From the NCBI RefSeq assembly GCF_000829235.1, contig NZ_AP012549.1, positions 2,400,001 through 2,432,000 on the forward strand: a stretch of DNA of 32,000 bases. Direction: 5' to 3'. The position numbers were made by a program, and so were the translations under genes. This document shows, one piece after another, positions 1-32,000 of the stretch (positions are counted from its first letter, which is position 1; each line of letters starts with the position of its first letter). This stretch comes from a cyanobacterium endosymbiont of Epithemia turgida isolate EtSB Lake Yunoko. Its GTDB lineage: Bacteria; Cyanobacteriota; Cyanobacteriia; Cyanobacteriales; Microcystaceae. The notes under the pieces were generated by a model that searched no databases, was not told the origin of the DNA, and worked only from the letters and a program-made list of their open reading frames with translations.

Positions 1-398
1 TGATTTATCTTTTCCACCATTAGTTGGAAAATTCAATTACTAAAATAAATTTTAATTATGTAAGTACATCCACTTACTATAAGTAGTTTCTGTCCATTAT
101 ATAAATTGATTGAAAACTTCATCACTCGTCACTCATTGTTTTTGTTTCAACAATATCTCTCATCTTCTCGATATCATTTTAATCTTAATAAGAAACAAAA
201 TGATAATGCCGTTCCTTTCAAAAATACTACTTCTCGCATAAAGCTGTAACTTCTTTTTCTCTCCATAAATTTCCGTAGAACTACGTTTAAGTAGGGTAAG
301 TTACGTATAAGATTTATTTTGAACAGAAATTAATAAGTTTTTATTCATACTGTAACCCGCCAAATTAGTCATGATATTTAATCATCTTGAATATCAAT

Positions 399-433
399 AA
401 AATCTAAAAATTGCCACCTTCATTGGTAGCAAT
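399..433 (-). terminator. Probable intrinsic terminator of glnA
   Basis: On the minus strand about 30 nt after the glnA stop. It has a 9-bp stem ATTGCTACC/GGTGGCAAT (one G-U pair) and a 6-nt loop, followed directly by TTTTAGATTTT. Confidence 0.55.
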
Positions 434-461
434 TATGAAGATTTAACTATTTGATAAAAGC

Positions 462-1883
462 TTAGACATCATAGTATAAGGCAAACTCATAAGGATGAGG
501 GCGTAACCGTAAAGGGTTAACTTCATTATCAAGTTTGTATTCAATCCAACTCTCGATAAAATCTTTAGTGAAAACTCCCGTATTGGTTAAAAATGTCTGG
601 TCCTTTTCGAGGGCTTCTAGGGCTGCCTCAAGAGAGCTGGGAGTTGAAGGAATTTTACTTAACTCTTCAAAGGTAAGATCGTAGATATCCACATCTAAAG
701 ATGGACCTGGATCAATTTCATTCTTAATCCCATCAATTCCTGCACATAGCATCGCTGCAAACGCCAAATAAGGGTTGCATGTGGCATCAGGACATCGGAA
801 TTCCAACCGTTTAGCTTTAGGATTGGGTCCAGACAAAGGAATACGAATAGAAGCAGAACGGTTCCCTTGAGAATAAGCTAAGTTAACAGGAGCTTCAAAA
901 CCAGGAACTAGACGCTTATAAGAGTTGGTGCTGGGATTAGTAAACGCTAACAAAGCAGAAGCGTGTTTAAGGATACCACCAATGTAATTTAAAGCCATTT
1001 TGCTCAAATCTGCGTAACCGTTCCCCCAGAATAGTGGTTGCCCATCTTTCCAGATAGATTGGTGAGTGTGCATGCCAGAACCATTGTCATTAAACAAGGG
1101 TTTGGGCATAAACGTCACGGTTTTACCATATTTCCTAGCAACATTTTTTACGACATATTTGTAGGTCATCAAATAGTCTGCCGCTTCAACGAGGGTAGCA
1201 AAGCGAAAACCTAATTCGTTTTGTCCTCCTGTAGCTACTTCGTGATGGTGTTTCTCAATTGGAACTCCACATTTAGCCATAGTTAGCAGCATTTCTGTCC
1301 GCATATCCTGTAGAGTATCTGTCGGGGGTACAGGAAAGTAACCCTGTTTGTAGCCAGGTTTATAGGCGAGGTTTCCACCCTCCTCTTTACGTCCCGTATT
1401 CCAGCGTCCTTCTACACTGTCTAGGTAGTAATATCCTTTATTCTCAGTTTGGTCAAAACGAACATCATCGAAGACAAAGAATTCAGCTTCAGGTCCAAAA
1501 AAAGCAGTATCGCCAATTCCCGTAGTTTTGAGAAATTCAACCGCTTTAGCAGCAATGGTACGAGGATCGCGGCCGTACCATTCTCCTGTACGAGGTTCCT
1601 TAATACTACAAATTATACTAAGGGTAGGTTCTTCACAAAAGGGGTCGATCCAAGCCGTTGTCGGCTCGGGAATCATGACCATATCAGACTCGTTGATGGC
1701 TTTCCACCCCCGAATACTCGAACCGTCGAAGGGAACCCCATCGACAAAAGAACTTTCGTCAATTTGATTGTAGTAGAATGAACAATGTTGCCAAATACCT
1801 GGGGTATCAATGAATTTCAGGTCAACAATTTTTATGTTGTTGTCTTGAACTATTTTCAAGACGTCTTGAGGGGTTTTAGCCAT
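462..1883 (-). CDS. glnA: Glutamine synthetase type I
   Basis: 473-aa ORF with GS-I hallmarks along its whole length ([38 protein letters not shown]). An AGGAG Shine-Dalgarno lies 7 nt upstream of the ATG (plus-strand CTCCT at 1891-1895). Confidence 0.97.
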
Positions 1884-1919
1884 GGACAGACTCCTATTTT
1901 ATTCAGCCTCAAACCACCA

Positions 1920-1961
1920 ACCCTAAAGATAGGTCACAAGATATTTTGTATTCCATGATAC
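1920..1961 (-). promoter_or_regulatory. NtcA-type (class II) promoter of glnA: GTA-N8-TAC box plus -10 element
   Basis: GTATTCCATGATAC at 1948-1961 fits the GTA-N8-TAC NtcA consensus. Exactly 22 nt further on the minus strand lies TAGGGT (1925-1920), which fits the TAN3T -10 consensus. This places the start site about 30 nt upstream of the glnA ATG. Confidence 0.7.
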
Positions 1962-2691
1962 AGGCATCCTTGTTTAAATCTGTAGATAATGCAAAGTTTT
2001 GAAGCTACTCTGCAACCTAAGTAGTCGGACATAAATGGACAACACTATGCTAACGCGAATTTGACAAGGTTTGAAAATATTTTTATTTTTCTTCTATTTC
2101 GCAGAGTATATTAATAACCGCCATAACCCCATTAACCCAATTTTGTCCCATCGGTAAATTGTTGACTGTCGAGGGAGCCTCTTTTAAATAAATAACAATT
2201 TTTTTCGCCTTTCACCTCATTGCTAATGATCTAATTACATTAACTCTATATTATGTTGTTATAGAAATTTTTTAAACTTCAATTAACTCATATAAATTCT
2301 TCTTTTTACTTTTTTTTAAAAAACACCATTACACTCAAATACAACATTAGTTAATCATAATTTTTATATCTAACTTTCATTAACATAAACTTTGAATTTA
2401 TGGTAATTGATTTTAAATCAATAAGGTATTATAATAGGTTATTAATTTAAACCTCTATTTAGATAAAAAACCTAAATTTTTTTAACAAGATATTGCAATA
2501 TTTTAACATAATTATTGTTTTAAAAAAATAACTTAGGCGGTCAATTCAAATAAAGATTTGTCCTTATGAGATGATAGATAAGGAAAAAAACACTAAACTT
2601 TATAGTAGGCTATAAAACATTGTTGACGTAATTATTATCTAATTAAAAATTATGATCTTACCGTACGTTATATGATAGGGATCAGAACGCA

Positions 2692-2808
2692 ATGAATAGG
2701 CTTAAAGACTATTATTTGCCTGATATAGCTTCTATCAGTGCGGCTGCGGTTGTTAATGCCAATTTTCCTGAAGTTCTAAGACAGGTGAGACTTAGATTAT
2801 TTGAATAG
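2692..2808 (+). pseudogene. apcA: Phycobiliprotein relic (apcA-like, central helix region only)
   Basis: Frame reads ..NAMNRLKDYYLPDIASISAAAVVNANFPEVLRQVRLRLFE*. It aligns with the phycobiliprotein core [28 protein letters not shown]. The chromophore-Cys position is substituted and only about 40 codons remain, with stops on both sides. Confidence 0.5.
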
Positions 2809-2877
2809 GTGTCTTAATTAGTTTTTTCTGAAGTAAATACTTATACTAATCTTTCTTATTCAGCTTTTCTAGAGTAA

Positions 2878-3129
2878 ATAGACTATTCTCTACGCTATGC
2901 TAGTTATGCTTTAGCAGAGGGTGAGTACAATGTTCTTGATAAAGGGATATTGCGAGAGTGGCGCAAAACCTATAACTTCTTGAGAGTTCTCATTATCTCA
3001 AAAATCAAGGAAATCCAAATTATGAAAGACATGGTAAAAACCATAATGGCTGATACTGGGATTAAAGATGTCTCATTTAATAATTTTTTTGCTCACAGAG
3101 CTCTTGATATTAGTGAAATTTCTGTTTAA
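2878..3129 (+). pseudogene. apcB: Allophycocyanin beta-subunit relic (C-terminal half)
   Basis: The frame opens right after a TAA with no start codon. It reads DYSLRYASYALAEGEYNVLDKGILREWRKTYNFLRVLIISKIKEIQIMKDMVKTIMADTGIKDVSFNNFFAHRALDISEISV*. This is collinear with ApcB [76 protein letters not shown]. The N-terminal ~85 codons, including the bilin-binding Cys, are missing. Confidence 0.75.
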
Positions 3130-3183
3130 GTTCGTTGAAAATTAATAAGATTCTTAGAGACGATCACTATTCTTCAGTCAACA

Positions 3184-3309
3184 GTGATTACTTCTCTAAA
3201 TCAAAAAAGATTGTTAGGATGTAGACTTAGTGTAACTAAAATTATTCGAGAAGCACCCAGTTTGGACATAATGAGTATAATACCATCTATGGGAGTTAAA
3301 CTAAAACTA
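3184..3309 (+). pseudogene. apcC: Possible apcC (small core linker) relic read through into clpS
   Basis: The upstream extension of the clpS ORF (NQKRLLGCRLSVTKIIREAPSLDIMSIIPSMGVKLKL) loosely parallels ApcC TQRELQNTYFTKLVPYENWFREQQRIMKMGGKIVKVEL, with internal deletions. Its position after the apcA/apcB relics matches apcABC operon order. Confidence 0.35.
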
Positions 3310-3603
3310 ATGATGGCTGTAGCCTCGGTTACCCCCAAGGGGTCAACCTCAGTTATACGGAATGTTTACCCTAACTATAAAGTTATAGTACTTAATGATA
3401 ATTTCAATACCTTTGAGCATGTTGCTAACTGCTTAATGAAGTATATACCGAACATGACTGGTGATCGTGCTTGGGAACTAACACACCAAGTTCATTCTGA
3501 AGGACAGGCAATTGTCTGGGTCGGTCCTCAAGAGCCTGCCGAACTCTATCACCAGCAGTTACGGCGAGAAGGATTAACTATAGCTCCTTTAGAGGAAGCT
3601 TAA
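3310..3603 (+). CDS. clpS: ATP-dependent Clp protease adaptor ClpS (cyanobacterial ClpS2 type)
   Basis: YPNYKVIVLNDNFNTFEHVANCLMKYIPNMTGDRAWELTHQVHSEGQAIVWVGPQEPAELYHQQLRREGLTIAPLE is a full ClpS core. I prefer the ATG at 3310 (97 aa) to the GTG at 3184 given in the ORF track, because the extension looks like a decayed upstream gene. Confidence 0.9.
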   Translation: MMAVASVTPKGSTSVIRNVYPNYKVIVLNDNFNTFEHVANCLMKYIPNMTGDRAWELTHQVHSEGQAIVWVGPQEPAELYHQQLRREGLTIAPLEEA

Positions 3604-3604
3604 G

Positions 3605-3937
3605 ATGATGAACAAATCTAAAGGACGGCTTGTTTGGAATCATTCAACTCACCTTCAAGGACTGATTCCTATCCTTGAAAAGTTGATTAATTGCACTGGA
3701 ATTACTACGGTTACTCCCGGGGTAATCAGTTGTTCTAAGAGTCACTATCCTTATTTAAAGTTACGGATATCTGTTCCCGTTCGTGGCGGTTATAAGGTGA
3801 TCGCAAGACAAGGAAAAACAGTTCAAGAAGTATTTATCGTTACAAAGTTAAGTCGTCAAGAATTAGAAACTGCTATTAACACAATTATTGAATTAAAGTT
3901 TAATAGAAAAAATAACACTCTTCACATAAGTCGATAA
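3605..3937 (+). CDS. Conserved hypothetical protein, translationally coupled to clpS
   Basis: 110-aa ORF starting 1 nt after the clpS stop. Its composition is gene-like rather than spacer-like. It resembles small conserved cyanobacterial proteins (RLVWNHSTHLQGLIPILEKL..GITTVTPGVI..YLKLRISVPVRGGYKVIARQGKTVQEVFIVT), but I cannot name the family with certainty. Confidence 0.6.
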   Translation: MMNKSKGRLVWNHSTHLQGLIPILEKLINCTGITTVTPGVISCSKSHYPYLKLRISVPVRGGYKVIARQGKTVQEVFIVTKLSRQELETAINTIIELKFNRKNNTLHISR

Positions 3938-5318
3938 CGTTCAGTAGTGTTTCATAATATAGATAGTTATAAATTATTCTAAACTAGTAACTCTGACGAC
4001 TTCGGCATTAAAAATTGAGTTTTAACCCACTATGGGATAATTGACATTGAACCTGATTTTTGAATCATAAATATCAGTAAGAATTACTGAGACAACTTAA
4101 CTTTTCATTTGACAAATTAGTAATTGTCTATTTACTGCAATTACTAATTTTTTTTGGCAAGGACTATAAGCTCGACTTTAGGAAATATAACAGTCGTGTT
4201 TTCTGCTTAATTTATGTTTACAACTATATTTTCGGGCCCGGTGATAATATTACTCTGATCCAGATAGAATTATAGAAGCTCACAGTTAACTAAAGAATTA
4301 AAGCTAAAATAATTTTAGCTTTATTTAAAATTTTTGCAAAGACGAGGTTATTCATAGTAAGAAAAGATTATTCATTATCAATAAAAATCACCTTCTTTAA
4401 GAAGAGGACTGATCATGATTACCTTTTGCGTGAGATTTTAGTTTATTACATTAGTTAAATAGGATTTATATTCCAATAAATTTATGACAATCTTATGCAT
4501 TTTTATTTTAGACTATTTCCCTTCTATATATGTTTAGTCCATAACTAAAAAACACTAGGATTTTATCCTAAGTGTGATTTGATAACTTATATTACTGCTA
4601 TTATCAATTGATATGGATCTTAAACGTTTTACCGACTAACCAATAATTAATCTAAATTTTATATTTAAATTTTTAAAAAAAGAGAATAATTAGAGAATAA
4701 ACCTGTTAATTTAACCTTAATTAATTTATTGGTATAATTTATTTTTTATGTATTTAAATTGGATTAATAAGTAGCACAATATTTATTACAAATAATATCA
4801 ATATATAAATAAAAATCTTAAATATTAAATGAAATTATTATACTTATATACAACTATGATAGTGATTACTTTTATTGGTATTAATCTACAAAAATAAATA
4901 TGATTTTTAATAAAAATTTTATTAAACCTAAGAAATTGACATGTGTTATTTAACACAATTTTTTATATATCAAACATAATATATAAATATATAGTATATA
5001 CATAAATATAATTTTTATATAACTTCATGATAGTTACTAATTAAACTAAATATAAGCAATATACCCATATCTAAAATTAGATTATAGAGAAAAATCAGTA
5101 ACTAACTTTTAGTTTAGAGATTAAGCCATTCCTGGTCATAAAAATAAAAATTTAGTTAATTCTCAATTTATTGCACAAAGAAGTTCAATTGAAACAACAT
5201 CAACAAAGTATAGAATTTCTAAAATAAGTAGATAAACAATAGAATTAATTGAATGTATTTATAAGCTTATTAAGCTGTACAGGTGTAATTAATATATGAT
5301 ACAGTGCATTAAATAAAT

Positions 5319-5550
5319 TTACGAAGCGATTAACTTGAATGAGTTATGATTACATTTTCGTATAACAGATAAGTTAAGGAAAAATTTTTTGCATATTAGG
5401 GTAACATATAAATATTTCCATTCCCGATAAGCTTGTTGAATAATTGAAGGTCACGCTTCAGTCTCTGCAATGGCAGTTGTTTGAATTTGTTTGATCTCTG
5501 GTAAAAAGGAAGGTGCATAGTTACGCCGGGGGCGTACTTGCTAAGCTTTA
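5319..5550 (-). pseudogene. rbcS: RuBisCO small-subunit relic
   Basis: The minus-strand frame reads VRPRRNYAPSFLPEIKQIQTTAIAETEA*PSIIQQAYREWKYLYVTLICKKFFLNLSVIRKCNHNSFKLIAS*. Compare cyanobacterial RbcS [60 protein letters not shown]...CRSQYPGHYIRVVGF. The RR..S.LP, KQIQ, A.E..E and WK positions match. There is an in-frame stop, an apparent 6-codon deletion and no start codon. Confidence 0.5.
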
Positions 5551-5689
5551 CAGGTTCAATTGTTCCTAATGCTTTTCATCAGAATGAATTAGAAGATAAA
5601 GAAAAATAGTGAAAAGATAGTTAATGAGTTAAGTAAACAGTATTTACTTTAATTGTTTATAAGATATCATAATAAAATTTTAAGAAGTG

Positions 5690-5945
5690 GCGATTAAAAG
5701 TCAATATATACGAATGAGCCGTTTAATCCGTAGCGAAGTTACACGATGTGTAAAGTGTTTATATAAAAACAGTACTCATTCAAAATATATAAATAGAAAA
5801 TAATTTAAACAAGATAGTTATTGTTGACATCTAGGAGGGAAATTGTAAAATTTATATAACTTGAAAGTGTCTTATAATCTTAGCAGTAAATACCCAAATA
5901 TTCAACTTCTTAGTCTTGGCATTAACTACAATGTTGTCGTCTTAT
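5690..5945 (-). pseudogene. rbcX: Possible RuBisCO chaperone rbcX relic
   Basis: Minus-strand fragments are VNAKTKKLNIWVFTAKIIRHFQVI* (cf. RbcX AKETAITLQSYLTYQAVRLISQQL) and VTSLRIKRLIRIY (cf. LVLRILTVRENLAE). The two fragments lie ~181 nt apart, matching the ~60-residue spacing of these motifs in RbcX. The relic sits directly upstream of the rbcS relic, as in rbcL-rbcX-rbcS operons. Confidence 0.4.
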
Positions 5946-6040
5946 TTTAAACTTCTTTTCTAGATAAGTAAGAACTATTCATTCATTTGACAGAAGATAG
6001 GGTAGTAACAATTTAAGAATTGTAAGTCTATATAAATCGA

Positions 6041-8758
6041 TTAATCACTCATCATTTGTTTAACTAAGTTTTCTGCTTCTTCCTTAGTTTTAATTTTTTT
6101 ATCTAAAGAAGCAGTCAATAACCTATCTAAAATAATTTTGTATGTAGGACCTGGTTTGTAACCCATTGCTTTTAAATCATTGCCATTTAATAGAGGCTGA
6201 ATATTAGACCACTTTGTAATATATTGCCAAATTGTACGACGAATTTCTTTAGAAGAACGAACCGCTACTAAGATTAAGGTAGGCAATCTATATAAATTAA
6301 GTAATCTAGTTTTTTCACTTATTATGTTATTTTTTAAAAGCTTTTTTTTAATTTCTAACTCGACTTCTGACAATACTTTTAAGCGTATAATGCTATCTTT
6401 TGGTAATTGAAAATCAAGAGCAATTTTAATAGATTCTACTGTATCTAGTTGACTAATTAATACTTCTAAACGAAGTAACCAATGTTCTAAATTATTTTCA
6501 GGATCAAGATATTTTAACCAACGGGAAATATAGCAAGTTTGCCACCATAATATATCATCTAAAGCTAACTTAGAATGTAAACATAGTAAAGCGTCTAAAT
6601 CAGCTAATAATTTTAAAGCTTGTTTCCAATAATGAGCTTCTAAAATAGATTTTAATTCTATTTTTAATCTAGTTTTTAAGGCAGGAACTGCATAATTTTT
6701 ACTTTTTAACTGTTTATAAATGCCGCTTTTAATAGCATTGTTAATATAAGCTTTTGTTTGGGGTTCAATTTTAAATCCCAACCGCGCAGCAAAGCGTACT
6801 GCCCTATAAATTCTGGTAGGATCTTCAATAAAACTATTAGCATGAAGTACTCGAATTTGACGCAATTGTAGGTCTAACATTCCTCCAAAAAAGTCTAATA
6901 ATTCCCCTTCCCTTGGGGATGTCAACCTAACCGCTAGAGCATTAATTGTAAAATCTCTACGATATAAATCCTGATGAATAGAACTAGCTTCAACTTTGGG
7001 GTTAGCTGCAGGATAAGGATAAAATTCTGTTCTTGAAGTGGCAATATCTACCCATAAAGACCCTAATTGGGGATCTCTGTCCCATACTAAAGCAGCTGTT
7101 TGGAATTCTCCATGTACTGATAGTCTAGCATTTGGGAAAGTTTTTCGTAGGGTCGAAGCCAATTCAACCCCAGCTCCCACACCAGCGGAATGATGAAATC
7201 CATCGACGACTAGATCAATATCCTGCAGTAATAACAATTTCTCTTCTTCTGATAAAAAGAAATCTCGGACTGCCCCACCAACTATATACAAATGCCAGCC
7301 CCGTTTTTTTGCTTCTTTTGCAGCGAGTTGTAATAATTTCCATACAGGAGAAGATAAACGCTGACTAATAGAAGGTAAAAAACAAGAAACTAAGGGAATT
7401 GGGTTACTATTTTTATTTTTTTTTTCTCTTCGAGCTTGATAAATTTGCCGTAATAAATCTGTTCTGGTAACAATTCCTAATAATTTATTGTTTTCAACAA
7501 CAGGTAATCTTTCCACGTCATTAGTTACCATTATTGATTCAATTTCAGGTAGTATAGTATCAGGAGTAATAGTTTTAAAATACTGTGCCATATGTCCTTT
7601 GATTGGGGCGTGACTAAGTCCATAATGGAAGGCTAAATCAATATCTCTACGAGAAATAATGCCCACTAAGTACTCATTTTCATCTACTACTGATAATCCC
7701 GAATGGCCATAGCGAAATAAGATTTTTTGCGCTTGTTCTATAGTTGTTTCTGGGCGAATTGTTTTAACAGGAGAAGACATTAAATCTCTAGCGGTTAGAG
7801 GGTAAGGAATTTGGGCAATAAATTCTTGCAATAACTTATCTAAAGTACTTTGAGGTTCTACCTCCTGTAGCATTAAAGAACCAGCTTGTTTATGTCCTGC
7901 TCCCTCATAAGATTGAAATAATTGCTGAAGATTGGTTCCCTCAATTCTGGTGCGACCAATAATAGTTAGTAACCCCTTTTTATCAGGTTTATTGTTACGA
8001 CATTTATCATCAAAATAACCTAATAATAAGGCATCACTTTCAGTTAATTTAATTAATAGTTCAGCTAAACTAGATAACCCAGGAATATAAGTTTCTGTTT
8101 TCAATAAAACTGAAGTAATAGTGTAACCTCTAATTTCAATTTTTTGAAAATTTTCTAACGCTTTTTGCAATAATTGTTGTAGTTTTAGAGAAAACCTAGG
8201 ATCGCAATATTCATCAATAGTTTTTACATTTGCTCCTCTTTCCATTAACCAAGCTAGGGCATAGGCATCACGGGAAGTAGACTGAGAGAAAGTAAGAGAA
8301 CCCGTATCAACATGAATACCTAAGGCCATCACCGTTGCTTCGATAGGGTTAGGATGAACGCTTTCTCGTTGCATTCTTTCCACTATCAGGGTTGTAGTCG
8401 CCCCGACAGGTTCTATTTTAGTGAATGTAGAGGGAATGTCTGAATATGAATTAGTGTTGAGATGATGATCATAGATTTCAATAGTTTTGATGTGAGGTAA
8501 ATCAAACCAAGAGGACACTGTTCCTAGGCGATCACATTTTTGACTATTCACTACTATTAGAGTACGAATTTGTTTAGGATTAATGATATGCAGTTCAATT
8601 AGTGCGAATTCGTCTCGGTAAAGGGCTAAAAAATCTCTAACTGCTGGATGTGCGCCCCCGGTAAGGACAATTCGACTATCTATTTTGAGACAAGAAAGTC
8701 CTACGGCTGCCCCTAGTGCGTCAAAATCTACGTTTTGATGACATAAAATTAAATCCAT
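6041..8758 (-). CDS. DHH phosphoesterase - tandem CBS - poly(A) polymerase/tRNA nucleotidyltransferase family fusion protein
   Basis: Intact 905-aa ORF. The N-terminus is DHH-type (LCHQNVDFDALGAAVG, DHH at IEIYDHHLN). Two CBS modules sit in the middle (ARDLMSSPVKTI..., HMAQYFKTITPD...). The C-terminal half has a nucleotidyltransferase head (YIVGGAVRDFFL..DIDLVVDG, RRDFTINALA, EDPTRIYRAVRFAARLGF). This architecture is typical of the ~900-aa cyanobacterial CCA/A-adding enzyme family. Confidence 0.9.
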   Translation of the reverse strand: MDLILCHQNVDFDALGAAVGLSCLKIDSRIVLTGGAHPAVRDFLALYRDEFALIELHIINPKQIRTLIVVNSQKCDRLGTVSSWFDLPHIKTIEIYDHHLNTNSYSDIPSTFTKIEPVGATTTLIVERMQRESVHPNPIEATVMALGIHVDTGSLTFSQSTSRDAYALAWLMERGANVKTIDEYCDPRFSLKLQQLLQKALENFQKIEIRGYTITSVLLKTETYIPGLSSLAELLIKLTESDALLLGYFDDKCRNNKPDKKGLLTIIGRTRIEGTNLQQLFQSYEGAGHKQAGSLMLQEVEPQSTLDKLLQEFIAQIPYPLTARDLMSSPVKTIRPETTIEQAQKILFRYGHSGLSVVDENEYLVGIISRRDIDLAFHYGLSHAPIKGHMAQYFKTITPDTILPEIESIMVTNDVERLPVVENNKLLGIVTRTDLLRQIYQARREKKNKNSNPIPLVSCFLPSISQRLSSPVWKLLQLAAKEAKKRGWHLYIVGGAVRDFFLSEEEKLLLLQDIDLVVDGFHHSAGVGAGVELASTLRKTFPNARLSVHGEFQTAALVWDRDPQLGSLWVDIATSRTEFYPYPAANPKVEASSIHQDLYRRDFTINALAVRLTSPREGELLDFFGGMLDLQLRQIRVLHANSFIEDPTRIYRAVRFAARLGFKIEPQTKAYINNAIKSGIYKQLKSKNYAVPALKTRLKIELKSILEAHYWKQALKLLADLDALLCLHSKLALDDILWWQTCYISRWLKYLDPENNLEHWLLRLEVLISQLDTVESIKIALDFQLPKDSIIRLKVLSEVELEIKKKLLKNNIISEKTRLLNLYRLPTLILVAVRSSKEIRRTIWQYITKWSNIQPLLNGNDLKAMGYKPGPTYKIILDRLLTASLDKKIKTKEEAENLVKQMMSD

Positions 8759-10705: not shown

Positions 10706-10740
10706 TATATCAAAGAATTAATATTATATATTAAGATTGA

Positions 10741-19337: not shown

Positions 19338-19390
19338 ATCACTGGTATGGTAAACGAAAGTCAGAAAGGGCTTAAGTCCATGATATTTCA

Positions 19391-23053: not shown

Positions 23054-24814
23054 ATGCTATCTCTATTAAAGATCAAAAATTTTACCTTGGTAGACCAGCT
23101 TACCTTAAAATTTGGTCAAGGGTTAAATGTCCTTACAGGAGAAACTGGAGCAGGTAAGTCCATTATTCTTGATGCGATTGATATTGTTTTAGGTGGAAAA
23201 ATCAATCATTATTTAATTCGTCAGGGAATGCAACAAGCATCTATTGAAGCCACCTTTGAAATGGATAACACTTTACAAGTGTGGCTAGAAGAACAAGAAA
23301 TTAAACCGTTAGAAGACAAAACTCTATTGTGTTATAGAGAGCTAACCCTCACAGGGGAAACCATGCGATCACGTTCACGGATCAATGGGGTGGTAGTGAA
23401 TTTGCAACTGATGGGAAAATTGCGTGATCGCCTTGTGGAAATTACTGCTCAAGGAAAACCTGTTCAACTGGTGGACTCTATACGACAACGAGAATTACTG
23501 GACTTGTATGGAGGGATGAGTCTTCTTAAACAGCGAAAATTAGTAGAGTCAGCTTACAAAAAATGGAAAATTGCAGATAAAATACTTAAAAAATGCCGAA
23601 AATCAGAGGAAGAAAGATTACAACGCCTTGATATAGTCGAGTATGAACTGAGAGAATTAGAAGAAGCTAAATTAATCAATCCTAAAGAGCTTGAACAACT
23701 TAACCAAGAACGTGATTGCCTCTCCTATGTAGGAGAGTTACAACGGTTGAGTTACTATACCTACCAACTGCTCTATCAAAATGATACTGGAGAGTCCGCG
23801 ATCGCTGATCAGTTAGGAGAGGCTGAAAGTATCTTGACAAAGATAGCGAAATATGGCGGAGAAATAGAGTTAATTTTAGAAATGATCAGATCTGCCTTAA
23901 CTCAGGTGGTAGAAGCAGGACAGCAAATTAATGGCTATGGGGATAGATTAGAAGCTGATCCAGAGAGATTAATAGAGATAGAAGAGAGGATTAACCTGTT
24001 AAAGCGTATTTGTCGTAAATATGGTCCTTCTTTAGAAGAAGTAATCAATTATCATCAGCAATTACAGCAAGAATTAGGAGAATTAACCGACAATCAACAG
24101 TCTATTGAACAGTTGGAACAACATACTAAAGTTGCTAGAGAAACTTTTTATCAAACCTGTAAAATATTAACAGAGCTACGTCAGAAAGCGGCCATCAAAT
24201 TAGAAAAACAATTAGTTGAAGAATTAAAATCGCTGGCAATGGATAAAGTAATCTTTGTCTGTCAGATAACCACTTGTTTACCAACAGTAATGGGAAGTGA
24301 TGAAGTTATTTTTTATTTTAGTCCGAACCCTGGGGAAAAAATAAAACCTCTTTCTAGTACAGCATCCGGGGGAGAAATGAGTCGTTTTTTATTGGCCTTA
24401 AAGGCTTGTTTTGCAAAATCAGAGAAGAGCTCTCGAACCTTGATTTTCGATGAAATTGATGCAGGAGTTTCAGGAAAAGTTGCTCAGGCTATTAGCGAAA
24501 AGTTACATAAACTGAGTCGTAAATATAAAGTTTTATGTGTAACCCATCAACCTTTGGTAGCTGCAATGGCAGACAATCATTTTCGAGTTACTAAGCAAAT
24601 GATTGAAGAATATTCTAAGACTGGAAACTTAGACAATAAGCAACTGAGTTTACCCAAAATTAGGACGGTTGTTCGAGTTACTAATTTAGATGATCGACAG
24701 ACTAGACGAGAGGAATTAGCCCAATTAACAGTGGGACATTCAGAACAAGAAGCAATTGAATTTGCTCAATCATTGTTAGTTAACGCGGAAGCATATCGTT
24801 TTAAAAAGAGTTGA
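23054..24814 (+). CDS. recN: DNA repair protein RecN
   Basis: The N-terminal Walker A is (LNVLTGETGAGKSIILDAI), followed by a long coiled-coil middle. The C-terminal signature and Walker B are (ASGGEMSRFLLALK, LIFDEIDAGVSG, VLCVTHQPLVAA). I prefer the ATG at 23054 (MLSLLKIKNF...) to the TTG at 23033. Confidence 0.93.
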   Translation: MLSLLKIKNFTLVDQLTLKFGQGLNVLTGETGAGKSIILDAIDIVLGGKINHYLIRQGMQQASIEATFEMDNTLQVWLEEQEIKPLEDKTLLCYRELTLTGETMRSRSRINGVVVNLQLMGKLRDRLVEITAQGKPVQLVDSIRQRELLDLYGGMSLLKQRKLVESAYKKWKIADKILKKCRKSEEERLQRLDIVEYELRELEEAKLINPKELEQLNQERDCLSYVGELQRLSYYTYQLLYQNDTGESAIADQLGEAESILTKIAKYGGEIELILEMIRSALTQVVEAGQQINGYGDRLEADPERLIEIEERINLLKRICRKYGPSLEEVINYHQQLQQELGELTDNQQSIEQLEQHTKVARETFYQTCKILTELRQKAAIKLEKQLVEELKSLAMDKVIFVCQITTCLPTVMGSDEVIFYFSPNPGEKIKPLSSTASGGEMSRFLLALKACFAKSEKSSRTLIFDEIDAGVSGKVAQAISEKLHKLSRKYKVLCVTHQPLVAAMADNHFRVTKQMIEEYSKTGNLDNKQLSLPKIRTVVRVTNLDDRQTRREELAQLTVGHSEQEAIEFAQSLLVNAEAYRFKKS

Positions 24815-26279
24815 ACTAGCCTGTATATCATTTAAGTTAGATATTACCTAAGAAAAAAGATAGTTTTACTAAACTTAGAAAGGTTAACTGATAGCTAGGA
24901 ATACAAAACAAGGAATGGGGAACAGTAAAAATAAAAAATTAGAGAGATATTTAGATATAAATGATATTAGTGATCTTCAAGACTTAATACTTCAACAAAA
25001 AGGCGTGGATATTACTGAGAGATACAATTTAAAAACTAAAAATTTTTCAAAAACAAACTATATTGTATGGTTTACCTTTTTGGAAGAGGTATTACCTAAA
25101 TTAAAGCTAACATATCGGAAGGATACAGAAAACAATATAGGGGAGAATACATAAGATTTTTAGTTATAGTGTTAACTTAAGTTAAAGACGAGAATAATTC
25201 TTACTTTATTTAGACAGAAAAACATAATTTTATATTTCCTCGCTTTAAAAGTATTGGTTTTACCTGATAAGTTCAATAGAACTAAACAAATTAATAAAAC
25301 TATACTTCAAGACATTTACGAGTCATTTATTCTTAAGGATTACCAAAAATATTTTCTGTTTGATTTAGATGTGATTGAGTAACCATAACAATTTTCTTGA
25401 TCCTATTTTTGGCATAAAAAAACAGTATAATCTACCATTTTGGTTGCCAGTTTTATATCATTGGTGATGATGATATTCGTATATTTCTCTTTTAAATAAA
25501 CAATTAATTCTTTTACTTGATGAATATAAATTTTATAAAGAAAGAAAACAAGTTCATTGATTTAAATAAGTTCTCTTTTAACACAACCAATGTGAACAAT
25601 ATATAACTCTTGTTTTTTCTACTAAAAAAGAGAGTTTTTTACTAACATGTCTTCTAAAATATTATTAATTATTACACTATAGACAATATTTTTCTAAATC
25701 CAGGAGTCGGGCATTGACAGATAAACTTACTTAAATGCGGTCTATCTAAAAATATAAAGTAATCACTAAAAACTAAAAAGTAAAAAACCATTATAACTTT
25801 TACTAATAAATCAATGGCTAAGTAATATTAAAATTTTTATACTTGGTATCCGATTGTTGAATCTTAATATTTAGGATGTAATAGTTTACCCGAGATATTT
25901 AATAATTTATCTCATGATCAAGAGTTATATTTAATGATAGTAATAGTTAAAACTTGATAAGTCTCAATCAAAGAAGTAGAATATTATTCGTTTAAAAGTT
26001 TAGAGATAATCGAGTAATTTTTAGTTACTGTAACTATACGATGCTCACTTTATCTATCCTAAGCTAGTCAATACATATTTTACGTAATTTATTTTTTAAA
26101 TGCGCATTTCTCAAATCTATTTAAATCTCCTAAATCAGAAAAATAATAATTAAGTTTAAAAATATAAGATATCAGTAAAGTCATCACAAACAATTCTATT
26201 GTAACTTTCCATCTACACTCATAATCAAACATTATATTCACAATATATAGACTAAAAAAATAGATAAAAATTTAAAATC

Positions 26280-27770
26280 TTTACTTCATCTATCCTATTC
26301 TAAGTTGTATTTTTATCAGCTCAAATTCAGTAAAATTTATACCTCTAATGTAGAAGCATGACGCACTTTCCCAGAAGAGAATAAAATCTCCCCTAAACTG
26401 CTCAAATAATCGTCAATTATTTGGGCAGTACTAGAGCCGATAAAGAGCGTCCTTACATGACGTATTTTTTAAATAAAATTTTAAGATTTAGCCAAAGCTA
26501 ATATTAAAGTACTGTGAAAAGAATTGATTGATAATGGACACGGCTTGTTCTAAAGAATCCACTACAACAATTAATCGATCGTAAGAGATCATCTTTGCAC
26601 TGAGAACTCCTGAGAAATATTCATCAGATTTATAAATGACTATCTTCTGTAGCATTGTGCCTCAAGTCACATCAGGAGTCAACAAAATCACTACGTTTGT
26701 GGACTCTTGTTCTATTTATACGAATAGAGTGCCCCAATATAGTTGAGGTTAGCCTTGCGCTCAGCAATGATTACTAAGTCAGAAATATCAAAAGATGTAC
26801 CAATAGCTACCGCTCCATAAACTGTTTTTTCGCCAACGTAACTTCGAGATCTCCTATTCCTGTAATGACTTCTACTCTTGGGAAAGTTTTAGTTCCGTAG
26901 GATAAAATGACAATAGCTGCTGTTTTTGCCAACCCTGTAAATTCTCTTGATTCCTATTTCTTGAGTGAGCGGCTGCCAAAATTAAGGGATAAATTTTTTC
27001 AAAAATATTAGGGGAAGTTATCACTATAGTTAGAAAACCTTGGCGACTTTTGCGAGGATGGCTTGAGTCAAAAACCCACTGATTTGAGGACATAAATCAC
27101 TCTCAATATAAGGTTCGGCTCCTTTAAAATGCTGGAACAACTCAAATTCTTGAGACTAGTTTTAATTGATGAAACTGGAGTTAAGCTAGCCATAACTTGT
27201 AATTTTACTAAAGCAACTAAGGGAAAATACGTTTATAAGGAATATATCAGTAGAGGAAGAAATATTGTCTGAAATTGGGACGATCACTACGTCGGTTTTT
27301 TGAATCCTTTTACTTTTTAAAAATAGATAAATCTAAAAAAATTTTTTGCACTGATAAAATAGAAGTTCTAATATGATTAAATATAGCCGGTGACTGTTGT
27401 AGTTATAGTTAAGTTGTTAACTCGTAAAACAACAACAAAAGTTGGGGAACTGATGGAATCTATAGAAGCAAAAGTCGTGTTCCTATTTCCTCAGTAGCTA
27501 TTAGTCATAAATTAGAAAACATTAACAAATTAAATGATCCTCTAACTCTAGAGTCCTTAATCAAACTCTCAATAAATCAATTGATTGAGCAACTGATGAA
27601 TACATAATTTACCAGTGTATCCACTTCTGCTATTACCAAGTTACCCAGTTAGAAACCGCTATAAAAACCAAAATCTGCATCGCTTTACCGCCGGTTCCGA
27701 CGAGTAAAAATAGCCGAACCAACTCTCACTCCAAAGCTTTGTCTGTTTCTTTAGTTCATTTTTCTGCTTG
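26280..27770 (-). pseudogene. hisD: Histidinol dehydrogenase relic, near full length, multiply frameshifted and split by an IS remnant
   Basis: Minus-strand fragments lie in different frames. Each is listed with the HisD segment it matches: (1) FKGAEPYIESDLCPQISGFLTQAILAKVAKVF, cf. LYVPGG.AAYPSSVLMNAIPAKVAGV. (2) PLILAAAHSRNRNQ and GLAKTAAIVILSYGTKTFPRVEVITGIGDLEVTLAKK, cf. GGAQAIAALAYGTETIPKVD.I.GPGNIYVTLAKK. (3) VYGAVAIGTSFDISDLVIIAERKAN, cf. V.G.VGID..AGPSEVL.IADE.AN. (4) RLIVVVDSLEQAVSIINQF, cf. .I.VDSLEEA.ELSN. (5) TLFIGSSTAQIIDDYLSSLGEILFSSGKVRHAS, cf. AIFLG..TPEA.GDY.AGPNH.LPTSG.AR..S. N-terminal traces (YTGKL cf. YT.KFD, RFHQ cf. AFH.Q) lie at 27400-27700. One frameshift coincides with a T6 run at 26825-26830. 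The ORF-track entry 26872..27093 is one frame of this relic. Confidence 0.85.
27128..27385 (+). mobile_element. Degraded IS630-family (DDE) transposase fragment inserted in hisD
   Basis: Plus-strand fragments: MLEQLKFLRLVLIDETGVKLAITCNFTKATKGKYVYKEYISRGRNI, then after a frameshift LSEIGTITTSVF, then FESFYFLK...KIEVLI*LN. These follow the IS630 pattern ..lvFiDEsG.n..m.r.ygra.kG.r......rg.n.tligal...G...F..fl......vlvmDN. Only about 85 of ~340 codons remain and no terminal repeats are recognisable. Confidence 0.6.
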
Positions 27771-27821
27771 ACTCCCGATGCTTTTTCAATAAAGATACCA
27801 TAACAATGGTACCACTTAACT

Positions 27822-29450
27822 TCATATGGTTACTGTATCCTCTATCGAATTTTCTAAAAGTAAACCATATTCAATTCCTTCGACAACTGCTTCATAGGAG
27901 GCTTCCAAAATATTGGGAGAAACTCCGACGGTACTCCAACGTTCTTTGCCATTACTAGACTCAACTAAAACTCTTGTTTTAGAAGATGTTCCTGATTCTC
28001 CATCCAGAATCCTAACCTTATAATCCGTTAGATGAAACTCTGCAACTGCCGGATAGAAATTTTCTAAAGCTTTCCGTAAGGCACTATCTAGGGCGGCAAC
28101 GGGACCATTTCCTTCGGCTACCTCCAATCTATCTTCTCCATTAACTGTAACTTTAATAGTTGCTAAAGCATTACTGTAAGATATTTCTTGTCCTCGTAAC
28201 ATATCACAATGTACTTGAAATCCTTTAAGTTGAAACATAGGTTTTCGTTGTCCCAATGCTTGACGCATTAAAAGTTCGAAACTAGATTCGGCTGCTTCAA
28301 ATTGATATCCTTCATATTCTAACTTTTTAATCCGTTCTAAAATGTCATGACAAGCAATATCTTCTTTTTTTAACTCAAGTCCAAAGGTTTTTGCTTTCGA
28401 TAAAACATTACTTAATCCTGACTGATCAGAAATGACAATACGCCGTTTATTGCCAATTTTTTCAGGTTTAATGTGTTCGTAGGTTAGGGGATTTTTTTGA
28501 ACAGCCGAAACATGAATTCCTCCCTTATGAGCAAAGGCAGAACGCCCTACAAAAGGAGCATAATCATCCGGTGCTAAATTAACAATTTCACTAATGAAAC
28601 GGCTAGTTTTACTTAATTGCGTTATTTGAGTATCTGTTAAACAAGAATACCCCATTTTAAACTGTAAATTTGGAATTAAGGTACATAAATTAGCATTACC
28701 GCACCTTTCCCCATACCCATTGATTGTTCCATGAATCATTCTCACCCCTTCTACCACCCCAGCTAACCCATTCGCTACTGCAGTTCCTGAGTCATTATGA
28801 GTGTGAATTCCTAATTTAGGAAAGGTTTCTCTATCAGGAGCTACATCTAACTCTTCTACCACTTCTTTAACAATTTTACTAACTTCCTGAGGCAAAGTTC
28901 CACCATTAGTATCACATAATACTAACCAAATAGCCCCGGCATTTTTAGCAGCTTTTAGGGTTTGTAAAGCATAATCAGGATTTTGCTTATAGCCATCAAA
29001 CCAATGTTCTGCATCGTAAATTATTTGTCTTCCCTGACTGCGGAGATATTCAATCGTATCTCTTATCATGGCTAAATTTTCTTCCAAGGTGGTTTTCAAC
29101 CCCTCAGTGACGTGGAGATCCCAAGACTTGCCAAAGATAGTTACCCAACGAGTTCCGGCGGCTAAAATCATCTGTAACATTCGATCACGATCTGAGGGAA
29201 TATACGGGCGACGAGTGGAACAAAAAGCCACGACTTCGGCCTGATTTAAAGGTTCTTCCTGTAACTTCCAGAAAAACTGGACATCTTTCGGATTAGCCCC
29301 TGGCCATCCTCCCTCAATAAAAGGAATTCCTAGCTTATCGAGTTGGTGGGCAATTTTCAGCTTGTCCTCCAGAGACAGAGCAATTCCCTCCCGTTGTGCC
29401 CCATCTCTTAGGGTGGTGTCATAAAGCAAAACTTGATTGGCCATACCCAT
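27822..29450 (-). CDS. cimA: (R)-citramalate synthase (LeuA-related, isoleucine pathway)
   Basis: 542-aa ORF. LYDTTLRDGAQREGIALSLEDKLKIAHQLDKLGIPFIEGGWPGANPKD (DGAQ rather than the DGEQ of LeuA), HTHNDSGTAVAN and the C-terminal LeuA-dimerisation-type regulatory domain fit the cyanobacterial CimA subgroup. 2-isopropylmalate synthase cannot be fully excluded. Confidence 0.85.
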   Translation of the reverse strand: MGMANQVLLYDTTLRDGAQREGIALSLEDKLKIAHQLDKLGIPFIEGGWPGANPKDVQFFWKLQEEPLNQAEVVAFCSTRRPYIPSDRDRMLQMILAAGTRWVTIFGKSWDLHVTEGLKTTLEENLAMIRDTIEYLRSQGRQIIYDAEHWFDGYKQNPDYALQTLKAAKNAGAIWLVLCDTNGGTLPQEVSKIVKEVVEELDVAPDRETFPKLGIHTHNDSGTAVANGLAGVVEGVRMIHGTINGYGERCGNANLCTLIPNLQFKMGYSCLTDTQITQLSKTSRFISEIVNLAPDDYAPFVGRSAFAHKGGIHVSAVQKNPLTYEHIKPEKIGNKRRIVISDQSGLSNVLSKAKTFGLELKKEDIACHDILERIKKLEYEGYQFEAAESSFELLMRQALGQRKPMFQLKGFQVHCDMLRGQEISYSNALATIKVTVNGEDRLEVAEGNGPVAALDSALRKALENFYPAVAEFHLTDYKVRILDGESGTSSKTRVLVESSNGKERWSTVGVSPNILEASYEAVVEGIEYGLLLENSIEDTVTI

Positions 29451-29716
29451 ATAATTATTACTACGTATAAGTGTCCGTCAACTTCAAACAAATAAAAATC
29501 AACGAGATTAGTTCCGACTATGACAGTGCAAGGCAAAGAGCTAGTTTTTTATCACAACACTAAACCAACCTCAGCCGTGTTTTTTGTACTGCACTACACC
29601 TCGCTCTACAATGATAAGTCAAAATCTAGGGAGTGGTCATTACAATGAAAAGACGAAAATTAAATTTATATTGCTCTCGATGAGTAACGCAAGTATATGG
29701 TGCAGGCTTCCCTACT

Positions 29717-29899
29717 TCAGAATAATGTGTTACCATTTAATCGGTCTTTTCTAGATAAAAAATATTGCTATTCATCTAGCTCTCTTCAGATAACTGCATA
29801 ATCCGTACTATCGACTGTCTAAAACGTTTTGAGCTTGTTAGTATTGTTGCTTGATTGTTTTGCAAAACGTGGGGATATGCATTTCAACTCGTTATAGTG
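29717..29899 (-). pseudogene. Possible plant-type [2Fe-2S] ferredoxin relic
   Basis: A single minus-strand frame reads HYNELKCISPRFAKQSSNNTNKLKTF*TVDSTDYAVI*RELDE*QYFLSRKDRLNGNTLF*. Compare PetF ..[49 protein letters not shown]... Matching positions are .L...S.R, KL, TVD..D, E and Y.L. All cluster-ligand Cys are lost and there are three in-frame stops. Confidence 0.35.
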
Positions 29900-29900
29900 A

Positions 29901-29946
29901 TGGAGTAAACTTACAGAGAGAAAACTAGCACTGTAAGTTTACTCCA
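29901..29946. repeat. Perfect 16-bp inverted repeat with 14-nt loop
   Basis: TGGAGTAAACTTACAG [AGAGAAAACTAGCA] CTGTAAGTTTACTCCA. A weaker GGGTT/AACCC hairpin follows immediately. Confidence 0.9.
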
Positions 29947-30123
29947 CAGGGTTTAAGGCTTTAACCCAAATGGGTGAACTATCTGGAGGAAGTACAAAAA
30001 CAGACAAACTTATAAACTGTACATTGTGAGGGGTGCCTATGCGACACTAACAAGTTATGGCATCAAGTAAAAGTCTTTCGTTCTTAATCTTTATTATTAT
30101 CTAGTTTAAGCAGGAGAACCTCG

Positions 30124-30192
30124 ATGGAGCTCATATCTCTTTCCCTCATTTTGGCTGGAACTTTTCTGGCAGATTATCTCCTCTACAGTTAA
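30124..30192 (+). other. 22-codon hydrophobic sORF with canonical RBS; possibly a truncated petG derivative
   Basis: AGGAG (30112-30116) lies 7 nt before the ATG. The peptide MELISLSLILAGTFLADYLLYS* has an ILAGTFLADYLLYS segment that parallels PetG TLAGLFYAAYKQYK (L,A,G,F,A,Y,Y identical). About 9 N-terminal-helix residues and the C-terminal KRPNELGG-type tail are absent. Confidence 0.3.
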
Positions 30193-30380
30193 GTCTAGAG
30201 TATACTTACTTTCTGAAAAAACCTGCAGCAGCTAAATAAAACTGAGGCGCAGCCGTATTGCAAAGATAAGTCGCGGACTGTACCCGCGGGTGGTATATTT
30301 ATCAACTCTTAGCTGTGATTTCAATCACCTTTTTAACAGCCTTAAGCTCCAAGAGAAGTTGAAGTTGGTTTTTTAGTATT

Positions 30381-32000
30381 TTAACTTTCTTTGAGAGACA
30401 TGCAACTCTCTTGATATATAACTAAGTCAAACCAGAAAGTTGTTCCAACACCGATCTCACTAATCAGATGGATTCGACTATGGTGTTTATCAATAATGTT
30501 TTTAACAATAGAGAGTCCTAGTCCTGTTCCTTCTAGCGTATGAACACGATTTTCCACACGAAAGAAACGGTCAAAAATCGCCTCTTGATCTTCGGGATCA
30601 ATTCCAATCCCTGTATCAGCAATTTCTATTCTTACCTGAGGTTGATAGGTAGGATTATGAGGGCTTTTCGTAAGTTGATAAGCTCGAATCACGATTTTCC
30701 CCCCCGCCTCAGTGAATTTTAAGCTGTTACCGACTAGATTGGTCATCACTTGAAGTAAAAGGTCGTAATGTCCTAGGATAGGGGTTAAATTTGGTTCTAT
30801 TTCTTGAGTTAAGGTTAATTGTTTATCCTTAGCATTTAGTTGGTAAGTACGTAGAATTTGTTCGACCACCTGATTGATATCAACCCGATCAAGATGATAA
30901 ATTTTTGAGGATTCTAAACGAGATAGATCAAGAACATCATTCACCAAACGAGTGAGGCGATCGGTTTCATTGTTGGCAGTTTCTAAGAATTCCTTACGTT
31001 CACTTTCCGTTAAGTCTTTGCCAAATTCACTTAAGGTTTCAATAAAAGATTTGATATTGAATAAAGGGGTTCTTAACTCATGGGAAACATTACTAATAAA
31101 TTGGCTTTTGGCTGCATTTAACTCCACTTCACGGGTAATATCTTGCGCCGTCATCGCAATACCTTTAAGGGTTTCGCGGTATTGGTCAAAAACTTGGGTT
31201 AAGAGAACCCGAATAATACGCTGGGTTGGTTGAGTTAGCGTAATACGGAACTCCCAAGGGGATCCCCCTTGGTGACTTTCGGAAATTTCAGAAAGTGATT
31301 CGGAGGAGTTTTTGTCTTTGTTTGTGTGAGTGTCTTCCTGAGCCATCTCGTGAAGAGGAGCTGTCAATTGCCAGGTTAATTCCGGGGACAAAAGTTCAAA
31401 GATATTGGTTCCAATGACATCTTTTCCTTCCCAACCAAACATCCGCCGTGCCCGTGGATTAACTAATAGTAATTGTAAGTTAGAATCAAGTAGAATGGCA
31501 CCATCAACTATAGTTGAAACGAGAGTTTCCAACTTAGCTTTCTCGGCGGTTAATTCTTCAATATTTTGTTCTTCATAGCGTTCAAGACGTTCAGCCATTT
31601 CGTTAAAACTGCAGATTAATTCTCCTAATTCTCCCTCAAAAGGTAGATTTATCCGTTGTTTAAAGTTTCCGGCAGCGATATTTTTGACTCCAACTAATAA
31701 TTCTTTAATTGGTCGGGTAATGGTTAAAGCGTTAAAAACAACCCCTAGAATAACCATAGCCCAAATAGCGACAAAAACTGCAATCGTAACATCCCGAGTA
31801 AGGTTGGAAGAATTTACCACTGTAGGATTAGGATTAATACCAATGGCGAGAATTCCTAAATAGTTACCGTCATGTTTCAATGGAACAAAAACATCAGTCA
31901 CCTTTCCATCAGGGCTGAGATGTTGACGGACAAGAGGAAGATTAATGTTTGTCAGATCAGTTTTAGGTAACTGGATATGCCGTTCAATGGTTAGAGAATT
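30381..32000 (-). CDS. nblS: Sensor histidine kinase NblS/Hik33 (5' end lies beyond the window)
   Basis: The reading frame stays open to the window edge (..PLVRQHLSPDGKVTDVFVPLKHDGNYLGILAIGINPNPTVVNSSNLTRDVTIAVFV). The domains are a TM segment, HAMP (ITRPIKELLVGVKNIAAGNFKQRI), PAS, HisKA (FISNVSHELRTPL) and HATPase (DTGIGI..GTGLGLSIV). The sequence is near-identical in long stretches to what I recall of NblS/Hik33. The GTG at 31901 in the ORF track is internal. Confidence 0.85.
   Translation of the reverse strand, partial: NSLTIERHIQLPKTDLTNINLPLVRQHLSPDGKVTDVFVPLKHDGNYLGILAIGINPNPTVVNSSNLTRDVTIAVFVAIWAMVILGVVFNALTITRPIKELLVGVKNIAAGNFKQRINLPFEGELGELICSFNEMAERLERYEEQNIEELTAEKAKLETLVSTIVDGAILLDSNLQLLLVNPRARRMFGWEGKDVIGTNIFELLSPELTWQLTAPLHEMAQEDTHTNKDKNSSESLSEISESHQGGSPWEFRITLTQPTQRIIRVLLTQVFDQYRETLKGIAMTAQDITREVELNAAKSQFISNVSHELRTPLFNIKSFIETLSEFGKDLTESERKEFLETANNETDRLTRLVNDVLDLSRLESSKIYHLDRVDINQVVEQILRTYQLNAKDKQLTLTQEIEPNLTPILGHYDLLLQVMTNLVGNSLKFTEAGGKIVIRAYQLTKSPHNPTYQPQVRIEIADTGIGIDPEDQEAIFDRFFRVENRVHTLEGTGLGLSIVKNIIDKHHSRIHLISEIGVGTTFWFDLVIYQESCMSLKES

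Follow-up and report, generated by a model that had tools for sequence, protein, structure and literature searches.

Gene islands and gene relics in a 32-kb stretch of the Epithemia turgida spheroid body chromosome

The DNA analyzed here, referred to as the window, is a stretch of 32,000 nucleotides (nt) from the cyanobacterial endosymbiont, or spheroid body, of the diatom Epithemia turgida (EtSB; contig NZ_AP012549.1, positions 2,400,001 to 2,432,000). We found 16 intact genes in it, the coding sequences of which sum to 15,843 nt (49.5% of the window), equal to 0.50 genes per kb. These are separated by ten long spacers, five of which hold recognizable relics of dead genes. The intact genes are as follows (aa, amino acids):

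462-1883, minus strand: glnA, type I glutamine synthetase (TIGR00653, 684 bits; identical to BAP18375.1)
3211-3603, plus strand: clpS (NF009563, 181 bits; gene order as in the free-living relative)
3605-3937, plus strand: DUF2103 protein (PF09876 on the identical Logan gene call; syntenic)
6041-8758, minus strand: DHH-CBS-PolyA_pol tRNA nucleotidyltransferase family gene (family scan)
9932-10705, plus strand: conserved hypothetical (the 231-aa EtSB protein BAP18379.1 shares its 90%-identity cluster)
10741-11421, plus strand: TIGR04283-family glycosyltransferase, intact in EtSB (family scan)
13537-16551, plus strand: murC (13537-15042), murB (15184-16110) and ybaB (16207-16551) (family scan)
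17539-18530, minus strand: 102-aa hypothetical (BAP18384.1, exact accession match) and GST-like protein (family scan)
19155-19337, plus strand: 60-aa conserved hypothetical (BAP18386.1, exact match)
21151-21891, minus strand: lipoate-protein ligase family gene (family scan, synteny)
23054-24814, plus strand: recN (TIGR00634; 100% identical to BAP18388.1)
27822-29450, minus strand: cimA, citramalate synthase (TIGR00977, 871 bits; identical to BAP18392.1)
30381-32000, continuing past the window end, minus strand: nblS, hik33-type histidine kinase (NF045911, 868 bits)

Along the window, gene-sized blocks with a GC content of 0.35-0.44 alternate with blocks of 0.17-0.30, so that the genes average 0.376, the rest 0.267 and the whole 0.321. 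The ten spacers are 624-3007 nt long, with a median of 1300 nt. Nine of them have a GC content of 0.198-0.296, while the tenth (29451-30380), at 0.373, equals coding DNA. Normal spacing was gauged from five homologous loci of free-living relatives, which proved to be 81-87% coding, with a median intergenic length of 107-207 nt and a maximum of 419-691 nt; in other diatom symbionts the coding share of the homologous loci is 44-51%. On this comparison the spacing pattern of the window is real and far outside the normal bacterial range. An earlier note, made from the letters of the sequence alone, had described a half-empty window with about 15.9 kb of intact coding sequence, had placed ten spacers at coordinates that all agree with our ORF (open reading frame) map, and had called these spacers longer and more AT-rich than usual. 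The windowed GC and coding density bear this out, with the greater length holding for all ten spacers and the AT-richness for nine, i.e. not for 29451-30380. The observation of a half-empty window with gene debris is thereby confirmed, but the phenomenon is already known. No tRNA genes were found in the window, and Rfam gave nothing credible in it, either at the gathering cut-off or at E<=0.5, the lone match at the latter level being a chance match of a miRNA model to a hairpin (a palindrome at 19540-19594).

Seven proteins encoded in the window match EtSB proteins exactly, namely GlnA, RecN and CimA, with the accessions given above, and BAP18384.1, BAP18386.1, BAP18389.1 and BAP18390.1. Over 1-11883 and 22835-31086 the window agrees in every nucleotide (100% identity) with two Logan contigs of run SRR29904087, and as these were assembled independently an assembly artefact is excluded. 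The window is part of the chromosome of EtSB, the genome of which was reportedly published by Nakayama et al. in 2014 (PNAS 111:11407). The suggestion in the earlier note of a non-photosynthetic cyanobacterial symbiont of the diatom spheroid-body type was correct, the type being established by the seven identical proteins and the loss of photosynthesis by the literature (PMC5638926). The EtSB genome measures 2.79 Mb, with 33.4% GC, 1,720 genes and 225 pseudogenes, and pseudogenization has gone further in it than in RgSB, the symbiont of Rhopalodia gibberula (PMC5638926). The GC content and coding density of the window, which belongs to this same genome, agree with the published values.

Relatives were ranked by the identities of MurC, RecN and the nucleotidyltransferase, which gives an order of identity and not a tree: other spheroid bodies come first (81-97%), followed by GCA_002110465.1 (79-80%), Rippkaea PCC 8801 (75%) and Crocosphaera (67-73%). 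The closest matches to MurC are metagenome proteins (97-87%), then 'Cyanobacterium sp. uoEpiScrs1' (85%), which is the spheroid body of Epithemia pelagica (10.64898/2026.03.19.712447), Rippkaea orientalis PCC 8801 (75%) and Crocosphaera (~71%); against species-representative genomes, Crocosphaera, at 71%, is the nearest among the matches listed. This ranking fits a placement beside Rippkaea orientalis and 'unicellular cyanobacterium SU2' in a Crocosphaera-related clade. GCA_002110465.1, the closest free-living genome that we reached, is probably, by our own inference, the 'SU2' strain of the 2026 preprint. Collinearity with the window was found in two further spheroid-body genomes, RgSB (AP018341.1) and the assembly ENA ERZ25042306.

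The spacers were searched for relics with a six-frame Pfam scan, for which pseudo-proteins were joined from stop-free pieces of at least 20 aa of spacer DNA. This detected only three relics (a phycobilisome protein, the GAPDH C-terminal domain and histidinol dehydrogenase), and the relics of FKBP, an AhpC-like gene and pstB, which it missed, were recovered by synteny-guided blastx. Together the six relics cover ~19% of the spacer DNA:

2623-3129, plus strand: apcF (allophycocyanin beta-18) pseudogene (PF00502; 150 residues aligned to the syntenic gene in GCA_002110465.1, which encodes 169 aa, at 52.7% identity)
3989-4302, minus strand: FKBP-type peptidyl-prolyl isomerase pseudogene, in two frames (37-41% aa identity over 117 residues, E ~1e-9 to 1e-11)
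13044-13305, minus strand: gap2 (NADP-dependent, Calvin-cycle type GAPDH) pseudogene, the C-terminal ~90 codons in three frames
21937-22669, minus strand: AhpC/TSA_2-like redox protein pseudogene (45-55% aa identity to residues 1-244 of the 263 of the syntenic gene, E ~1e-46 to 1e-48)
25315-25693, minus strand: pstB (phosphate ABC transporter ATPase) pseudogene (31-65% aa identity to the recN-adjacent gene of the relative, E ~5e-12)
~26328-27096, minus strand: hisD (histidinol dehydrogenase) pseudogene (PF00815; ~250 codons in two frames)

The apcF relic is collinear with its ortholog over 169 of 169 codons, but has lost the start codon and carries six in-frame stops, one of which adjoins the position of the chromophore cysteine. 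The AhpC/TSA_2-like relic is nearly full length, with one frameshift and many stops; in both cases the lesions are seen directly in the translations. The identities of the dead genes were further supported through their intact orthologs: ApcF chains are the best solved-structure matches of the apcF ortholog, the FKBP ortholog, a syntenic gene in GCA_002110465.1, is named by NCBIfam, and the pstB ortholog is PstB by TIGR00972. The best structure match of the gap ortholog is 3B1J, the NADP+-dependent GAPDH that binds CP12, and the gene is therefore of the Calvin-cycle type. Set against solved HisD structures, the hisD relic corresponds to approximately residues 139-390 of ~430-440. A third spheroid body keeps a 149-aa HisD ORF fragment at the same place, while RgSB has no counterpart for 26195-27156, the segment of the window that bears the relic.

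Gene order in the free-living relatives supports these assignments. GCA_002110465.1 has the order glnA-apcF-clpS-DUF2103-FKBP-hyp155-nucleotidyltransferase (cca) at one locus and, elsewhere, gap beside murC-murB and the series lplA-AhpC_like-recN-pstB-pstA-pstC, and the order gap-murC-murB-ybaB is found in Rippkaea PCC 8801 as well. No recognizable relic of hyp155 was found in the window. A permissive search with 35 neighbor proteins of the relatives also left five spacers (8759-9931, 16552-17538, 18531-19154, 19338-21150 and 29451-30380) without a recognizable relic, and nothing below E 0.2 was obtained with the queries polysaccharide deacetylase, GHL10, CBS-CP12, cbiMNQO, PsaL, MscS and pstA/C, nor with FGE-sulfatase, GUN4, the carotenoid-protein genes, the opuA permease and fur.

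Blastx of the whole window against genes of free-living relatives, as proposed in the earlier note, thus placed the apcF, FKBP, gap, AhpC-like and pstB relics. That note had named the dead genes as those of light harvesting, carbon fixation and histidine synthesis; apcF, gap2 and hisD verify all three, to which a phosphate transporter ATPase, a prolyl isomerase and a redox protein have to be added. Its claim that the spacers contain relics wherever they are readable holds for five spacers and fails for the other five. The hisD relic does not imply that histidine synthesis has been lost, since the amino-acid pathways of spheroid bodies are reported to resemble those of their free-living relatives (10.64898/2026.03.19.712447).

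In a comparison of EtSB with RgSB, codon positions 1/2/3 of the genes are 0.938/0.961/0.849 identical. Values for single genes include 0.975/0.985/0.838 for glnA, 0.913/0.932/0.879 for the conserved hypothetical at 9932-10705 and 0.951/0.983/0.770 for the 60-aa gene. Identity in the spacers, on the other hand, is 0.786 across 11,892 aligned nt, and indels make up a further 798 + 509 nt, i.e. the spacers evolve at or above the rate of third codon positions, and the bulk of them shows no sign of constraint. All spacer ORFs of at least 45 aa that could be aligned across their length were either broken in RgSB or lacked a codon-position pattern; three ORFs (16821-17042 and 26488-27272) have no alignable RgSB counterpart, and two at block edges were marginally covered. 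Two of the exact EtSB matches, annotated in GenBank as hypothetical proteins, lie in this decaying DNA between recN and cimA. The 79-aa BAP18389.1 (24915-25154, plus strand) is interrupted in RgSB by four stops and by indels totalling 96 nt, and the 73-aa BAP18390.1 (26872-27093, minus strand) overlaps the hisD relic out of frame. From these alignments, both look like spurious gene calls.

Part of the spacer DNA is conserved, however. Most stretches with an identity of at least 93% to RgSB lie just upstream of a gene (glnA, clpS, murC, recN or the 60-aa gene), and a regulatory role, as promoters or leaders, is probable for them. When the window was masked for genes and compared at the nucleotide level with the free-living loci, only the relics, the gene-proximal leaders and a single further element in the tenth spacer were matched. 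The features concerned are:

1884-2102, minus strand: conserved glnA upstream region, promoter- or 5' untranslated region-like, in spacer 1 (in 60-nt windows, identity to RgSB is 93% or more; 1889-2003 is 86% identical to the free-living relative)
29953-30200, plus strand: conserved non-relic element of ~250 nt in spacer 10 (72.8% nt identity to DNA between genes, upstream of cimA, in the free-living relative)
30124-30192, plus strand: 22-codon ORF MELISLSLILAGTFLADYLLYS, at the end of this element and preceded by the Shine-Dalgarno-like AGGAGA

The 22-codon ORF is intact in three spheroid bodies, of which EtSB and RgSB are two, and also in the free-living genome closest to them. By our count from the alignments, these four genomes differ by ~12 synonymous and 5 conservative replacement changes, and the frame is unbroken. 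A leader of ~170 nt upstream of the ORF is likewise conserved, while the DNA around decays; folding of the four aligned sequences gave no convincing structure for this leader. The peptide has no Pfam or NCBIfam match and is absent from the protein collection, and two degenerate DNA scans of metagenome contigs were without a match. On the pattern of substitutions, we lean narrowly toward a real, unannotated gene for a 22-residue hydrophobic peptide, which might be a clade-specific small membrane protein or a leader peptide, kept through the period of gene loss.

With the organism, the relics in synteny with intact free-living genes, and the unconstrained spacers all observed directly, we read the window, at a probability of roughly 95%, as a stretch of the chromosome of an obligate, non-photosynthetic, nitrogen-fixing endosymbiont caught with about half of its DNA as gene debris. 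A Rippkaea/Crocosphaera-related cyanobacterium would have become the obligate nitrogen-fixing spheroid body (diazoplast) of Epithemia turgida. Needed genes such as glnA, murC-murB, recN, cimA, nblS and that for the tRNA nucleotidyltransferase would have stayed under purifying selection, while life in the host would have made apcF (phycobilisome core), gap2, pstB (phosphate uptake), the FKBP gene and the redox gene dispensable, so that these were inactivated and left to drift. AT-biased mutation would then pull the GC content of relics from ~0.38 to ~0.20-0.25, stops and frameshifts would build up, and deletions of tens to thousands of bases would strip the relics piecemeal. Deletion is presumed to be slow, such that the removal of DNA would trail inactivation and about half of the DNA would be debris at the present stage. 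The relics and the loss of constraint are seen in the sequence itself, and the mutation bias and slow deletion are the probable causes.

Several points weigh against this reading. Only ~19% of the spacer DNA can be tied to a named relic, and a dead-gene origin of the five spacers without relics is suggested by their context and neutral divergence. The spacer at 29451-30380 combines a coding-like GC content with the conserved element and its small ORF, showing that some of the non-coding DNA is not debris, and the same probably applies to the conserved, regulatory stretches close to genes. Moreover, third codon positions, which serve as the neutral yardstick in one pairwise comparison, are themselves not entirely neutral, and the genome-wide loss of photosynthesis (photosystems, chlorophyll synthesis and RuBisCO), with nif genes retained, is taken from the literature (PMC5638926) and not from this window, in which apcF and gap2 are dead and no nif gene is located.

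These points bear in part on a different explanation, namely that the spacers hold unannotated functional genes or RNAs, e.g. small proteins, small RNAs or long regulatory regions, maintained by selection. It draws support from the ~250-nt element with the 22-codon ORF, conserved in the free-living relative and three spheroid bodies, from the well-conserved upstream regions of the five genes named above, and from the two GenBank hypothetical proteins annotated between recN and cimA. The conserved pieces nevertheless total roughly 1.2 kb out of 15.4 kb, spacer identity falls below that of third codon positions, with ~1.3 kb of indels in addition, the comparable ORFs, including that of the annotated 79-aa protein, are broken in RgSB or flat by codon position, the annotated 73-aa ORF is out of frame on the hisD relic, and Rfam offers nothing credible even at E 0.5. 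For the bulk of the DNA the explanation is already largely refuted, and we regard it as very improbable. The earlier note had itself proposed conserved spacer products as the finding that would speak against gene decay; since spacer identity lies under third-position identity and the comparable spacer ORFs are broken or patternless, no such products are seen for the bulk of the spacers. That the AT-rich blocks are instead foreign or mobile DNA (prophage, insertion sequence (IS) remnants or acquired islands) we give practically no credence, for although a 60-nt inverted repeat occurs in two spacers, with a 19-bp hairpin at 20094-20152, and 18 dead IS elements have been reported in EtSB (PMC5638926), six-frame scans of the spacers scanned matched no transposase, integrase or phage families, free-living relatives have an ortholog of every recognizable relic at the corresponding position, and collinearity with RgSB extends to the spacers.

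Within the reading of resident genes in decay, the states of the individual relics also say something about the order of loss. The GC contents of the six form a series of 0.389 (gap2), 0.364, 0.338, 0.303, 0.256 and 0.227 (pstB), and aa identity drops broadly alongside, with gap2, at 62-72%, being the best preserved. In RgSB gap2 is intact (338 aa), and EtSB lacks 828 nt of it (RgSB locus L091, 4679-5506; window 13302-13311), comprising the promoter and the first ~243 codons. Since the gene is intact in RgSB, its loss is demonstrably recent and specific to EtSB, and gap2 is the youngest relic. RgSB keeps gap2 whole although it, too, is non-photosynthetic. Ordering gene losses by state of decay, as the earlier note had envisaged, is thus reasonable, and succeeds in at least one case, gap2, which is the least decayed of the relics and was independently shown to be a recent loss.

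Other losses have left less behind. An opuA-type permease gene and fur are intact between the GST and 60-aa genes in three other spheroid bodies (loci L085 5630-11985, L088 1-5260 and L092 456-5151), and no traces of either were found in the 624 nt that EtSB has at 18531-19154. In the spacer between recN and cimA, a 320-nt piece (27157-27475) is 68% homologous to, and inverted relative to, an RgSB piece located between the 60-aa gene and lplA (L088 6492-6785), which indicates a small rearrangement in non-coding DNA. Decay can also run the other way: the TIGR04283 glycosyltransferase gene, whole in EtSB, is split into two pieces of 123 and 98 aa in RgSB (L091 7427-8107), in an alignment without indels, opposite to the published trend of EtSB being further decayed.

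The product of nblS is a known regulator of photosynthesis-related stress genes, and the gene is retained under strong purifying selection (0.959/0.985/0.839 against RgSB) though the symbiont no longer photosynthesizes. An N-terminal truncation, raised by a profile match that begins at 145, was rejected, since no stop interrupts the frame before the window ends and the 673-aa protein of RgSB is collinear with it.

A few repeats were noted in the spacers as well. The ~60-nt repeat is found in inverted orientation at 20116-20175 and 27566-27625, with 82% complementarity; near 20094-20152, its hairpin is formed around GCTGATGAAGACATAAT, and the repeat is present also at the homologous place in RgSB (L088 13128-13184). 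A small repeated or mobile element may have left it behind. Nearly perfect palindromes with arms of 25-27 nt lie at 16566-16620, 17515-17565 and 19540-19594. The first two coincide with the 3' ends of two genes, ybaB and that for the 102-aa protein, and the third follows the 60-aa gene at a distance of ~200 nt. RgSB shares the first of them, and these long palindromes may be terminators.

Gene order across the window is shared with the other spheroid bodies, i.e. RgSB, ERZ25042306 and the 22 genomes of Abresch et al. 2026, as are the low coding fraction and the pseudogenes of apcF, FKBP, AhpC-like and pstB. EtSB and RgSB differ in that RgSB has intact copies of gap2, the opuA-type permease gene and fur, all of them lost or truncated in EtSB, whereas in RgSB the glycosyltransferase gene is split and the hisD relic deleted. 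Judging from the coordinates, the homologous stretch would span ~41.3 kb in RgSB versus 31.8 kb in EtSB. Across more than 20 spheroid-body genomes, 0.58-0.68 genes per kb have been reported and put down to degraded gene fragments, together with a GC content of 33-35%, high synteny and an absence of intact transposases (10.64898/2026.03.19.712447). UCYN-A, the nitroplast (Candidatus Atelocyanobacterium thalassa), is a related nitrogen-fixing endosymbiont of the Crocosphaera clade that has likewise lost photosynthetic functions, but its genes are denser and its pseudogenes far fewer (PMC12377750, PMC12903740); by comparison with its published description, the window shows an earlier, debris-rich stage. 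The model of early host-restricted bacteria (McCutcheon and Moran 2012), as far as the 2026 preprint relays it, is similar in its pseudogenes, minimal coding density and AT enrichment. Unlike in that model, the window has a stable gene order and yielded no transposase relics, which agrees with the view in the preprint that spheroid bodies depart from a course driven by mobile elements.

That the low coding density of this genome stems from degraded genes has already been published (2014, 2017, 2026), the last of these making the point genome-wide for more than 20 spheroid-body genomes (10.64898/2026.03.19.712447). Since the genome has been published and its loss of photosynthesis, hundreds of pseudogenes and low coding density have been described, the discovery value of the present analysis is small. 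It does show that a reading of raw sequence alone can diagnose such an organism correctly. Beyond the published EtSB genome it adds a relic-by-relic map of 32 kb, an illustration of how gene losses can be dated from the decay of relics, in which gap2 is independently EtSB-specific, and a candidate gene. The latter, the conserved 22-codon ORF at 30124-30192, is the only possibly new item, and if it is indeed a gene, it would add one to the minimal set of young, nitrogen-fixing, organelle-like symbionts.

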